DNA of 18,816 nt from an uncultured Bacteroidota bacterium. Lineage in GTDB: Bacteria; Bacteroidota; Bacteroidia; Bacteroidales; CG2-30-32-10. Of the stretch, positions 8,820 to 10,152 are shown one piece after another. The translations under genes and the position numbers were made by a program. The DNA lies in assembly GCA_903847905.1 (NCBI GenBank), contig CAINEZ010000237.1:1-18816 (forward strand), in the 5' to 3' direction. Below the pieces are notes generated by a model. It did no database searches, was not told where the DNA came from, and was given only the letters and a program-made list of their open reading frames with translations. Numbering within the stretch: position 1 is the first letter of the stretch; the number at the start of each line of letters is the position of its first letter.

Positions 8820-9851
8820 ATGGGAAAAGATTTCATAACGGGTCAAATAAAAACAGTAGCAGGCAATGTAGCGCAGGTTTCCACAGTGTGGTCATCAAAT
8901 GATGTGTGGAGCACAATAAAAGTTCGTTGGTCTATAGGACGTATGGATTACAAAGTAAAACAAGGTTTATATGCTGTGGGTAATCCGGATGAAAATTCAA
9001 ATATTTTTGTTTCTGCAAATTTTAAATTAAGTTTCGATCATTTACGCCGCGCTTTGCACAAAATGAATGCATGGATACTCGTGCTTGATACAAAAGGTGT
9101 CAATGTATGGTGTGCTGCCGGAAAAGGAACTTTCGGGACAAAAGAATTAGTATATAGAATAAAAGCCCATGAACTTGAAAAAATAGTTTCGCACAGGAAA
9201 ATTATTGTTCCGCAATTAGGAGCGACAGGAGTTTCAGCGCACGAAGTAAAAAATAAAACAGGCTTTCATGTTATATACGGGCCTGTACGCGCTGATGATA
9301 TCAAAGCATTTGTAGATTCGGGTTTTAAAGCAACTCCCGAAATGCGAAAAGTAAAATTCCCGCTTAAAGAAAGAGCAAAATTAATTCCTGTTGAACTTAC
9401 TTATGGAAAATATTACCTGCTTTTTATTCCTGCATTATTTTTTATTCTTTCAGGATTAAATATTCACGGGTATTCCATTGACCTTGCATGGGAAAATGGC
9501 GGCAAATCGTTTATCAATTTATTTTCTGCATATTTTGCGGGATGCGCATTAACGCCAATATTGCTGCCCTGGATACCATTCAAAAGATTTTCATTAAAAG
9601 GACTTTTTTTAGGACTGGTGATTGGCTTTATTTTATTGTACTTTCATTTTTTGGGAAATAATATATTTGAAATTATTTCATGGTTTTTAATAACCGGAAG
9701 CATATCATCATTTCTTGCAATGAATTTCACGGGTTCTTCTACATTTACTTCACTGAGCGGTGTTCAGAAAGAAATGAAATTATCATTGCCTTTGCAAATT
9801 ATTGCAGCAAGCATTGGATTAGTTGGATGGATTTTTACAAGATTTATATAA
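8820..9851 (+). CDS. hgcA: HgcA, the corrinoid protein of the mercury-methylation pair
   Basis: 343 aa. The diagnostic cap-helix motif NVWCAAGK (aa 95-102, nt 9102-9125; Cys98 = nt 9111-9113) sits within ILVLDTKGVNVWCAAGKGTFGT. Further matches are VSANFKLSFDHLRRAL, IVPQLGATGVSAHEV and GPVRADDI. The C-terminal ~150 aa form about 5 TM helices, an architecture that separates HgcA from soluble CFeSP paralogs. Confidence 0.88.
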   Translation: MGKDFITGQIKTVAGNVAQVSTVWSSNDVWSTIKVRWSIGRMDYKVKQGLYAVGNPDENSNIFVSANFKLSFDHLRRALHKMNAWILVLDTKGVNVWCAAGKGTFGTKELVYRIKAHELEKIVSHRKIIVPQLGATGVSAHEVKNKTGFHVIYGPVRADDIKAFVDSGFKATPEMRKVKFPLKERAKLIPVELTYGKYYLLFIPALFFILSGLNIHGYSIDLAWENGGKSFINLFSAYFAGCALTPILLPWIPFKRFSLKGLFLGLVIGFILLYFHFLGNNIFEIISWFLITGSISSFLAMNFTGSSTFTSLSGVQKEMKLSLPLQIIAASIGLVGWIFTRFI

Positions 9852-9852
9852 T

Positions 9853-10152
9853 ATGAACAGATTTGTGTATTTAAAAAATGTTGTTACTCTTGAACTTGAC
9901 TGGCAGAAATGCAATGGTTGCAAGATGTGTACAATTGTTTGCCCGCATGAAGTGTTTGTTGTAAAAGACAAAAAAGCAATAATCCGGAACAGAGATTATT
10001 GTATGGAATGCGGCGCTTGCGAAAAAAATTGTCCGGAAGGAGCTATCAGCGTAAGATCGGGTGTTGGCTGTGCGGCAGGTATTATTAATGGTTTGCTGAA
10101 AGGGACAGAACCCAGTTGTGATTGTTCTTCTTCAAAAGATAAGTGTTGTTAA
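9853..10152 (+). CDS. hgcB: HgcB, the 2x[4Fe-4S] ferredoxin partner of HgcA
   Basis: 99 aa from ATG 9853, 1 nt after the hgcA stop. It has CNGCKMCTIVCP (C20-C30) and CMECGACEKNCP (C50-C60), the conserved GVGCA Cys73, and a C-terminal tail SCDCSSSKDKCC ending in the vicinal CC typical of HgcB. Confidence 0.85.
   Translation: MNRFVYLKNVVTLELDWQKCNGCKMCTIVCPHEVFVVKDKKAIIRNRDYCMECGACEKNCPEGAISVRSGVGCAAGIINGLLKGTEPSCDCSSSKDKCC

Follow-up and report, generated by a model that had tools for sequence, protein, structure and literature searches.

We asked whether the two adjacent genes at positions 8820–10152 of the window (the whole 18,816-nt stretch of DNA analysed) are genuine hgcA and hgcB, and what such a pair does in the middle of a Bacteroidales arsenic-detoxification cluster. 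It has long been asked what HgcAB is natively for, and fermentative Bacteroidales are reported to rank, in both abundance and transcription, with the leading hgcA carriers of lakes and thawing permafrost. The methylation phenotype has been confirmed in no Bacteroidales strain (10.1101/2020.04.01.018762), in agreement with the remark in the original prediction that Bacteroidota carriers have little experimental validation; our literature search found no pure-culture Hg-methylation test for Bacteroidota later than that 2020 preprint. The hgcAB family, its Bacteroidales clade and its association with ars genes are already known, since Bacteroidetes hgcAB, their natural expression and their co-location with arsR, arsC and acr3 are described in papers from 2020 to 2025, and the copy in the window is ordinary, not rare. 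Homologues number in the thousands, the best 120 being 70–100% identical; the named organisms among these 120 are Bacteroidales or Bacteroidota MAGs, and several of the proteins are called HgcA by NCBI. The exact HgcA and HgcB proteins of the window are themselves already in NCBI and ENA. An hgcAB of this kind is named automatically by annotation pipelines and, as an hgcAB call, adds little; the most informative feature of the locus, and its main interest, is the placement of hgcAB inside an ars operon, which the original prediction did not mention.

Identity of the hgcA-hgcB pair

The hgcA gene (8820–9851, forward strand) encodes a 343-aa corrinoid protein that scored 437.7 bits against the curated model NF040863 (equivalog cut-off 275; E = 2.4e-131), with the match spanning residues 17–342 of 343. 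Residues ~44–167 make up a CFeSP-type B12-binding domain and residues ~197–343 a TM domain. The cap-helix motif NVWCAAGK (residues 95–102; nt 9102–9125, forward strand) contains Cys98, the predicted Co-thiolate ligand, encoded by TGT at nt 9111–9113; the motif was identical in 80/80 Bacteroidota orthologues and invariant in alignment A1 as well. Cys98 aligned with the Thr of CFeSP SVLTAYADGKF, and it is from this sequence alignment with CFeSP that the cap helix is assigned. The AlphaFold2 model of HgcA (mean pLDDT 80.8) paired an N-terminal domain of Rossmann-like form with a C-terminal domain of five helices, located at residues 199–210, 220–247, 257–274, 282–306, and 312–342; hydropathy gave five TM-like segments at ~197–218, 231–252, 254–286, 282–303, and 320–343. 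The original prediction had called for a structure model as a check on both the TM bundle and the cap helix. The bundle of five helices was indeed present, but the cap region (residues 93–102), in a model built without cofactor, had pLDDT below 50 and was assigned no helix. When the model was used for a Foldseek search, its best match in the PDB library was the ND132 HgcAB model 9a0b_A (41% identity, E = 3.5e-20, TM 0.62–0.64). A plasmid search with HgcA as query gave no matches.

The stop codon of hgcA ends at 9851 and the ATG of hgcB (9853–10152, forward strand) follows after the single base 9852, so that the two are separate ORFs with a 1-nt gap. HgcB, a 99-aa 2x[4Fe-4S] ferredoxin, scored 125 bits against NF040864 (equivalog cut-off 99; E = 7.8e-37), and neither this match nor that of HgcA can be put down to chance. 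Its two CX2CX2CX3CP motifs, at residues 20–31 and 50–61, were 100% conserved; Cys73 lies within GVGCA, the terminal CC occupies residues 98–99, and the extra cysteines 89 and 91 belong to an invariant CDC at 89–91, all 13 Cys being kept at 99–100% among 79 orthologues. In 78/78 related loci hgcB came directly after hgcA, and dN/dS values of 0.06–0.15 for hgcA and hgcB showed purifying selection on both. The gene coordinates, protein lengths, cap-helix motif, Cys98 codon and roughly five TM helices in the original prediction all matched our ORF, motif, hydropathy and AF2 data, as did its 1-nt spacing and its cysteine motifs for HgcB. The Bacteroidota-type host that it proposed is likewise borne out by a GldH gliding-motility lipoprotein gene, found by profile search just downstream, and by the nearest relatives, which are nearly all Bacteroidales/Bacteroidota MAGs.

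The same data bear on the idea that hgcAB is a decaying or inactive remnant. We found no points in its favour; against it stand the intact ORFs of typical lengths (343 and 99 aa), the retention of all functional residues with dN/dS of ~0.1, and the plentiful hgcA transcripts of Bacteroidetes in nature (PMC7438021), and we give it almost no credence.

A pair of this kind might also be a non-methylating paralogue, either a soluble corrinoid protein of the CFeSP/CdhE type next to an unrelated ferredoxin or a relative of the HgcAB-like fusion. The sole Pfam match of HgcA was CdhD (PF03599, 51.2 bits), and JGI labels many of its homologues 'acetyl-CoA decarbonylase/synthase gamma subunit', as such a reading would have it. 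Moreover, the B12-binding domain of the CFeSP large subunit (AcsC/CdhE; 4djd, 2h9a, 2ycl) is homologous to that of HgcA: HgcA residues 43–167 aligned with CFeSP residues 318–442 (E = 8e-11; alignments to 4djd_C and 2h9a_A), and Foldseek matched HgcA to CFeSPs with E values of 1e-5 to 4e-4 in the corrinoid domain only. However, the CFeSP structures covered only ~130–150 residues of the HgcA model, and CFeSP differs from HgcA in having Thr at the Cys98 site, in its TIM barrel and N-terminal [4Fe-4S] domain, and in lacking a TM domain. The HgcAB-like fusion (NF043039) has related corrinoid and ferredoxin modules, but in one polypeptide, whereas the window has two ORFs. In contrast to the 437.7 bits obtained with the HgcA model, HgcA scored 203.8 bits against the fusion model NF043039 (cut-off 285; HgcB, 55 bits) and 74.2 bits against the CdhE/CFeSP model PRK04165 (cut-off 306), all below the respective cut-offs. 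The hgcA/hgcB HMM check suggested with the original prediction, which we ran with NCBIfam models, therefore placed both proteins above their curated equivalog cut-offs and below those for the fusion and CdhE, upholding the description 'canonical hgcA-hgcB pair', and the kinship with CFeSP or fusion paralogues that had been named as fatal to it did not appear in the profile scores. We regard the paralogue reading as effectively refuted and its being correct as extremely improbable.

The ND132 HgcAB is like that of the window: the genes are adjacent, HgcA joins a corrinoid domain bearing the N(V/I)WCA(A/G)GK Cys to a five-helix TM domain, and HgcB has Cys73, a CC at its end and a pair of CX2CX2CX3CP clusters. 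We conclude that 8820–10152 is very probably a genuine hgcA-hgcB pair, encoding orthologues of HgcA and HgcB that would work by the mechanism known from ND132, and most likely co-transcribed with the arsenic genes under de-repression of ArsR. The steps proposed here are carried over from enzyme work on Pseudodesulfovibrio mercurii ND132, the source for the SAM donor, methyl-Co(III), ligation by a Cys thiolate and the pair of [4Fe-4S] clusters (PMC11588087). The two [4Fe-4S] clusters of HgcB would deliver low-potential electrons to the cobalamin of membrane-anchored HgcA, reducing it to Co(I); the cobalt would then take a methyl group from S-adenosylmethionine and become methyl-Co(III), whose axial ligand would be the Cys98 thiolate; and the methyl group would be passed to Hg(II), with release of methylmercury. 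The Hg(II) is probably held by HgcB Cys73 and the C-terminal CC, whose ND132 counterparts are C73, C94, and C95 (PMC11588087). By analogy with ND132, the host of the window would be expected to methylate Hg.

The ars cluster and expression of hgcAB

The gene map from profile searches places hgcA and hgcB as genes 13 and 14 of a 15-gene ars cluster on a single strand (2053–10698), in the order arsR, arsE, arsR, three arsF, arsG, arsP-like, acr3, a 76-aa Cys protein, a Cys-rich membrane protein, a CcdA-like CxC/CC protein, hgcA, hgcB, and arsC, with intergenic gaps of −4 to 108 nt; all coordinates below refer to the forward strand. The first ArsR/SmtB-family regulator (2053–2403; NF033788 69.8 bits, cut-off 55) has no CC pair and probably begins only at the ATG near 2107. 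An ArsE/MTH895-type thioredoxin-like protein (2485–2808; TIGR00412 113.5 bits, cut-off 62) separates it from a second ArsR-family regulator (2813–3112), which matched PF01022 with 28.2 bits (cut-off 22) and NF033788 with E = 5e-11 but only 42.3 bits, below the cut-off of 55. This second regulator carries a Cys-Cys pair within LQTCCTSGEM, putatively of the kind carried by As(III)-sensing ArsR proteins. Most related loci have a homologue of it upstream of hgcAB, and we name it as the candidate for control of the cluster. There follow three tandem ArsF-family genes (3163–3594, 3591–4160, and 4183–4617; NF040494 87–96 bits, cut-off 60), the true ArsG of the window, an ArsG-family permease with the DsbD_2 fold (4624–5331; NF040495 316 bits, cut-off 200), an ArsP_1-family permease (5336–6373; PF03773 244 bits) and an ACR3 arsenite efflux transporter (6377–7486; TIGR00832 440 bits, cut-off 282.8). 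The 76-aa soluble Cys-rich protein encoded next (7490–7720; 8 Cys) has a gene call in both NCBI and ENA and is kept at 56–83% identity across 14 related loci; it had no Pfam/NCBIfam match and, judged by its Cys pattern, may be zinc-ribbon-like. Beyond hgcB lies an ArsC-like arsenate reductase of the LMW-PTP/thioredoxin-coupled type (10261–10698; PF01451 73 bits; TIGR02691 131.8 bits, below the equivalog cut-off of 174.3). The window thus has an ArsR-family repressor, ACR3 and an ArsC-like reductase, the last below its equivalog cut-off, on one strand with short gaps, the arrangement that defines an ars operon.

Because hgcAB lies inside this 15-gene, one-strand cluster with no gap longer than 108 nt, it is most likely that the pair shares a transcript with the genes for arsenic detoxification and that an ArsR-type regulator controls its de-repression. 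The case for co-transcription is one of gene spacing, and a separate promoter could lie within the 108-nt gap before arsC. In ND132, hgcAB transcription is ArsR-dependent and arsenic-responsive (10.1101/2022.10.17.512643). There arsR is directly upstream of hgcAB and co-transcribed with it, and hgcAB has no other adjoining ars genes; in the window an ArsR-family regulator is encoded ~5.7 kb upstream of hgcA in the same cluster, and the pair is surrounded by the remaining ars genes. A sigma-70 promoter scan, whose consensus is ill-suited to Bacteroidota, returned 37 sites versus 39.9 expected, which is background, and the terminator-like sites were unconvincing, so the promoter and terminator scans did not place the operon boundaries. 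A perfect 10-bp inverted repeat (7579–7588/7605–7614) was considered as an ArsR operator and rejected, since its position falls within the 76-aa ORF and further copies elsewhere in the window do not exceed chance. An Rfam scan of the whole window gave no matches, and therefore the window contains no cobalamin or SAM riboswitch.

To compare gene order we used 80 related Bacteroidota genomes, the denominators differing per feature. Same-strand ars genes lay within 2.5 kb upstream of hgcA in 58/67 genomes (87%), ArsC or ACR3 was found within 3 kb in 37/46, and ars genes occupied both flanks in 34/57. The HgcAB proteins of Bacteroidales/Bacteroidota MAGs and of Paludibacter jiangxiensis NM7 belong to the same clade as those of the window, with 51–88% identity, the 343-aa length, an identical cap-helix motif and an ars context. 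What sets them apart from the window is gene order: the Paludibacter/Microbacter loci L073–L078 are arranged ArsR-ArsE-ArsF-ArsG-ArsP-ArsC-HgcA-HgcB-ACR3, whereas in the window ACR3 precedes the pair and ArsC comes after it, as they do in locus L001.

The cysteine-rich membrane module upstream of hgcA

The two genes immediately before hgcA form a module that is absent from the Paludibacter/Microbacter loci. The first (7746–8111, forward strand) encodes a small Cys-rich membrane protein with an N-terminal CxCxxxCC, one TM helix (a single hydropathy segment at residues 21–51) and conserved CC pairs in its C-terminal tail; among 41 orthologues, Cys11, Cys13, Cys18, and Cys84 were conserved at 100%, Cys85 at 98% and Cys17 at 85%. 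The second (8111–8815, forward strand) encodes a CcdA/DsbD_2-like six-helix membrane protein (PF13386 35.9 bits, gathering cut-off 24.9) with a CxC (Cys34, Cys36) and a CCNP (Cys154, Cys155), these four Cys being invariant in 36 homologues. Like CcdA/DsbD and ArsG, it has the DsbD_2 fold with Cys in TM1 and TM4, and its Cys sites fall at the ArsG and CcdA positions in alignments; but CcdA and ArsG have one Cys per site (PC motifs), whereas this subfamily has four thiols in its CxC and CC and, unlike them, has the small Cys-rich membrane protein as its companion. The protein was 24% identical to the ArsG of the window and gave a weak profile match to CcdA 5vkv (E = 0.06); its AF2 model (alignment A2; mean pLDDT 56.4) was too poor for a fold search. 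It does not qualify as an ArsG, its score of 34.4 bits against the ArsG model being far below the equivalog cut-off of 200.

The Cys-rich gene was directly 5' of the DsbD_2-like gene in 63/70 metagenome loci, and hgcA came next after the CcdA-like gene in 51/63. In the genome sample the two-gene module lay upstream of hgcA in 47/80 genomes, in 43 of them directly adjacent. It also occurred in ArsR-CysRich-DsbD2-ACR3 operons that lack hgcAB (loci L152 and L162). Our literature search found no published description of the module, and a search tying hgcA to DsbD, CcdA or cytochrome c biogenesis gave no mention of hgcA among the matches listed. These two conserved Cys-rich membrane proteins are candidate HgcAB partners. 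We also entertain, as a quite unlikely proposal, that Bacteroidales HgcAB is a working part of an arsenic/soft-metalloid detoxification operon in which the upstream pair is an undescribed thiol-lined membrane relay that exchanges Hg(II), As(III) or their methylated products with HgcAB; were this so, HgcAB would gain its first candidates for partners in transport, and its native function could be approached concretely.

Native function of HgcAB in Bacteroidales

The operon position of hgcAB suggests that Hg is perhaps not its physiological substrate. One alternative substrate is a halomethane, with HgcAB acting as a corrinoid reductive dehalogenase of CCl4/trihalomethanes and Hg methylation being incidental. 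According to a 2026 preprint (10.64898/2026.04.26.720869), CCl4 is dechlorinated by ND132 and also by HgcAB in heterologous expression. That this report is a preprint weighs against the idea, as does the lack of any sign of halocarbon metabolism in the window or in 80 related loci, whose conserved neighbours are arsenic genes, and we consider a halomethane very unlikely as the native substrate.

The other alternative concerns arsenic. Here HgcAB would be real, but its selected role in Bacteroidales would be the handling of arsenic or soft metalloids, Hg methylation being a side reaction; we think this somewhat unlikely. For this clade the genomic argument for an arsenic link is very clean: ars genes of the same strand enclose hgcAB both in the window and in most relatives, and the presence of the Cys-rich and CcdA-like module in arsenic operons free of hgcAB is in keeping with such a role. 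In ND132, moreover, an hgcAB knockout is more As(V)-sensitive and arsenic induces hgcAB (10.1101/2022.10.17.512643), but the knockout effect was for As(V), not As(III). Within this role HgcAB might itself methylate As(III) in a corrinoid/SAM-dependent reaction, and the ArsP-family permease or ACR3 would then export the product; it counts in favour of an arsenic role that, in the Pfam/NCBIfam profiles, no methyltransferase family was matched by any of the 15 cluster genes although the ArsP-family permease is encoded. Against an arsenic role, arsenic methylation by HgcAB was not found reported in the literature examined, and the substrate cannot be deduced from synteny alone. A selected role in arsenic handling overlaps with the preferred reading, a genuine hgcAB working as in ND132, and the two do not exclude each other. 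With its full context, the complete locus is a good template for heterologous testing of Bacteroidales hgcAB.

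Identity and conservation of HgcA and HgcB

The gene sizes, coordinates, spacing and motifs of the original prediction were each borne out by scripted checks on the window. HgcA (8820-9851, + strand, 343 aa) carries NVWCAAGK at residues 95-102, with the Cys98 codon TGT at nt 9111-9113, and a single base separates its stop codon from the ATG of HgcB (9853-10152, + strand, 99 aa), in which CX2CX2CX3CP motifs begin at residues 20 and 50, Cys73 lies within GVGCA, the C-terminal CC occupies residues 98-99, and additional cysteines are found at 89 and 91. An alternative TTG start for HgcB (9823-10152, + strand, 109 aa, overlapping hgcA) is less likely, as the profile match and the usual orthologue lengths (97-99 aa) favor ATG 9853; the 109-aa version is used in some JGI gene calls.

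With the NCBIfam models, HgcA scored 437.7 bits against the HgcA equivalog NF040863 (cut-off 275), 203.8 bits against the HgcAB-like fusion model (below its cut-off of 285) and 74.2 bits against the CdhE model (below its cut-off of 306); HgcB scored 125 bits against NF040864 (cut-off 99). Pfam matches of the pair were limited to a CdhD-type corrinoid domain and generic Fer4 domains. When the AlphaFold2 model of HgcA (47 homologues; mean pLDDT 80.8; alpha/beta N-terminal domain) was compared with the PDB library by Foldseek, the top match was 9a0b_A, the HgcAB integrative model of the reference methylator Pseudodesulfovibrio mercurii ND132 (E = 3.5e-20, 41% identity over 322 columns, TM 0.62-0.64); structures of corrinoid iron-sulfur proteins (CFeSP) ranked after it, their match being limited to about 130-150 HgcA residues. 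Among PDB sequences, the B12-binding domain of CFeSP large subunits aligned with HgcA residues 43-167 (4djd_C, E = 8e-11), and in this alignment HgcA VNVWCAAGKGTF lay opposite CFeSP LSVLTAYADGKF, showing that Cys98 stands in place of the CFeSP cap-helix Thr. Profile scores and fold thus upheld the call of a canonical hgcA-hgcB pair, and a grouping with CFeSP or HgcAB-like fusion paralogues was not borne out. Of the two structural elements predicted for HgcA, the membrane domain was recovered, as five TM-like segments by hydropathy (residues 197-343) and as modeled helices at 199-210, 220-247, 257-274, 282-306 and 312-342; the cap-helix region (residues 93-102) had pLDDT < 50 and is therefore without structural confirmation.

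The cap-helix motif was NVWCAAGK in 80/80 orthologues from Bacteroidota genomes (51-79% identity), and all 13 HgcB cysteines were conserved at 99-100% in Bacteroidota orthologues, the C-D-C at residues 89-91 (window 10117-10125), right before the terminal CC, being clade-wide (invariant in all 79 HgcB orthologues). Compared pairwise with the nearest relatives, hgcA had a dN/dS of 0.06-0.13 and hgcB one of 0.07-0.15, dS being close to saturation. The base composition of hgcAB (GC 0.34-0.38) did not differ from that of its flanks.

The surrounding ars cluster

On the plus strand, an adenine deaminase gene (from 398) is followed by genes for ArsR (from 2053), the ArsE thioredoxin (from 2485), an ArsR with a CC pair (from 2813), three ArsF-family proteins (3163, 3591 and 4183), ArsG (from 4624), an ArsP_1 permease (from 5336) and ACR3 (from 6377), then by those for a 76-aa Cys-rich protein (7490-7720, starting 3 nt after ACR3), a 121-aa Cys-rich single-TM protein (from 7746) and a CcdA/DsbD_2-like protein (from 8111; the module formed by these last two ends at 8815). 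An LMW-PTP-type ArsC gene (from 10261) comes after hgcB, with GldH, UvrC, Nudix, OPT and PepT genes downstream in that order on the same strand; a patatin-like phospholipase gene between Nudix and OPT (13672-14472) is the sole sizeable minus-strand gene of the window. As the ars genes form a one-strand run with intergenic gaps of -4 to 108 nt (2053-10698), we concluded that hgcAB is embedded in the cluster and not merely close to it. The three tandem ArsF-family (nitroreductase subunit) paralogues (3163-4617) precede ArsG; one or two copies were detected by tblastn in related loci bearing arsF.

When the window proteins were compared by tblastn with 80 genome loci, hgcB followed hgcA at 78/78 loci, a same-strand ars gene lay within 2.5 kb 5' of hgcA at 58/67, ars genes flanked hgcAB on both sides at 34/57, ArsC or ACR3 lay within 3 kb at 37/46, and ACR3 directly followed hgcB at 26/68. 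The most frequent order was ArsR-ArsC-CysRich-CcdA-like-HgcA-HgcB-ACR3. The window-type composite with arsE, arsF, arsG and arsP recurred in four loci (L008, L014, L018 and L028); the Paludibacter and Microbacter loci (L073-L078) have it too, but lack the Cys-rich module. Genomes as a rule hold few ars loci; on that assumption, hgcAB and ars genes occur together much more often than expected at random. In ten loci (L005, L006, L011, L037, L038, L042, L045, L046, L058 and L062), though not in the window, the ars region 2-10 kb upstream of hgcA contains a second stretch that codes for an HgcB-like ferredoxin (about 40% identical to HgcB).

The position of hgcAB among ars genes has been described before in broad terms: hgcAB is flanked by acr3, arsC, arsR and arsM (PMC7438021, 2020), the association appears again in later work (PMC10349881, 2023; PMC11984097, 2025), and ArsR-hgcAB is listed in Bacteroidetes including Paludibacter jiangxiensis (10.1101/2022.10.17.512643). 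In ND132, ArsR controls hgcAB, responding to arsenic and SAH, and a knockout showed raised As(V) sensitivity (10.1101/2022.10.17.512643). Gene spacing and this precedent suggest that the window hgcAB and the ars genes are expressed jointly, under the control of a repressor of the ArsR type; an arsenic-linked physiological role is a tentative proposal that we consider possible but less likely than not.

The Cys-rich and CcdA-like genes upstream of hgcA

A CcdA-like gene lay upstream of hgcA at 47/80 loci (about 60%), in 43 of these with a gap of 75 nt or less, and the small Cys-rich gene was directly 5' of it. In the CcdA-like protein, CxC (Cys34, Cys36) and CCNP (Cys154, Cys155) were invariant among 36 homologues; the window ArsG, 24% identical to it, has in contrast only one Cys per site, and CcdA 5vkv gave a weak full-length match to its profile (E = 0.06). 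Conserved features of the small protein are CxCxxxCC ahead of the TM helix and, in the C-terminal tail, CC pairs. The 76-aa protein has 8 cysteines in the pattern CxxC...CxxCxxxC...CxxxCxxC. Fourteen related loci encode a conserved version of it (56-83% identity), placed after ACR3 or, in L003, directly upstream of hgcA. Neither small protein matched a Pfam or NCBIfam family.

For the reverse test, metagenomes were scanned with the CcdA-like alignment, giving 80 loci, 63 with enough downstream DNA. The next gene was hgcA in 51 of the 63; loci without it were ArsR-CysRich-CcdA-like-ACR3 or -ArsC operons, for example L152 and L162, which lack hgcAB. The module is thus an ars-operon component independently of hgcAB, with which it is preferentially, though not always, associated. 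We consider it unlikely that the Cys-rich pair upstream of hgcA serves HgcAB as a dedicated relay. Two CcdA-like members on long contigs had the order ArsR-ArsC-(rhodanese)-97-aa-CcdA-like-HgcA-HgcB. In a termite-gut contig (L159, 4708-5691) an unrelated 327-aa gene separates the CcdA-like gene from hgcA, and L010 and L019 have similar extra spacing. Among the papers listed for hgcA in combination with DsbD or CcdA, none mentions hgcA; the quantified ars context and the Cys-rich/CxC-CC CcdA-like module were the sole elements for which we found no description, and are leads, not results.

Predicted function and relatives

By orthology to ND132, the cobalamin of the window HgcA would be reduced by HgcB, Co(I) methylated by SAM, the cobalt ligated by Cys98, and the methyl transferred to Hg(II), probably presented by HgcB thiols. 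It has been established that SAM donates the methyl group, that the reaction passes through methyl-Co(III) ligated by a Cys thiolate, and that HgcB contains two [4Fe-4S] clusters (PMC11588087, 2024); halomethanes have been put forward as the native substrates in a 2026 preprint (10.64898/2026.04.26.720869). A methylation phenotype had been confirmed in no Bacteroidales member (10.1101/2020.04.01.018762), and we found no test of one in later literature.

The pair is an ordinary canonical member of a well-documented clade. Nearly 1,000 hgcA genomes are known, Bacteroidetes among them; Bacteroidetes/Ignavibacteria HgcAB are monophyletic, and Bacteroidetes dominated hgcA transcripts in a thawing fen (PMC7438021). 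The protein search scored at least 8000 HgcA candidates, all with E <= 1e-10; the best 120 were 70-100% identical and mostly 343 aa, those named by organism being Bacteroidales or Bacteroidota MAGs and several carrying the NCBI name 'mercury methylation corrinoid protein HgcA'. The window HgcA, HgcB, CcdA-like and 76-aa proteins are already deposited in NCBI and ENA (19,120-nt contig), and a curated profile suffices to name the pair. Across GTDB, with each species represented by one genome, 112 loci encoding a relative were found, and the best 80, which were kept, were nearly all labeled Bacteroidales, Bacteroidota, Prolixibacteraceae, Paludibacter, Microbacter or Marinifilum.

The Bacteroidota host assignment is supported by the gliding-motility lipoprotein gene gldH directly downstream of the cluster; UvrC follows GldH in the window, an order shared with L001 and L002, the closest genomes. 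The longest GldH ORF (10695-11225, + strand) has a TTG start overlapping arsC; the ATG near 10764, where the lipoprotein signal MKKIFFALIIALFLFSC begins, is the more likely start. Two MAG assemblies each contained two separate hgcAB loci (CAZGIM01, L042 and L045; JAPLDL01, L037 and L050), which means that the genome has two copies or that the bin is mixed. One locus (L053) is labeled Alphaproteobacteria, yet it has the ArsR-HgcA-HgcB order and the identity values of the Bacteroidales loci L054 and L055; the contig was probably mis-binned.
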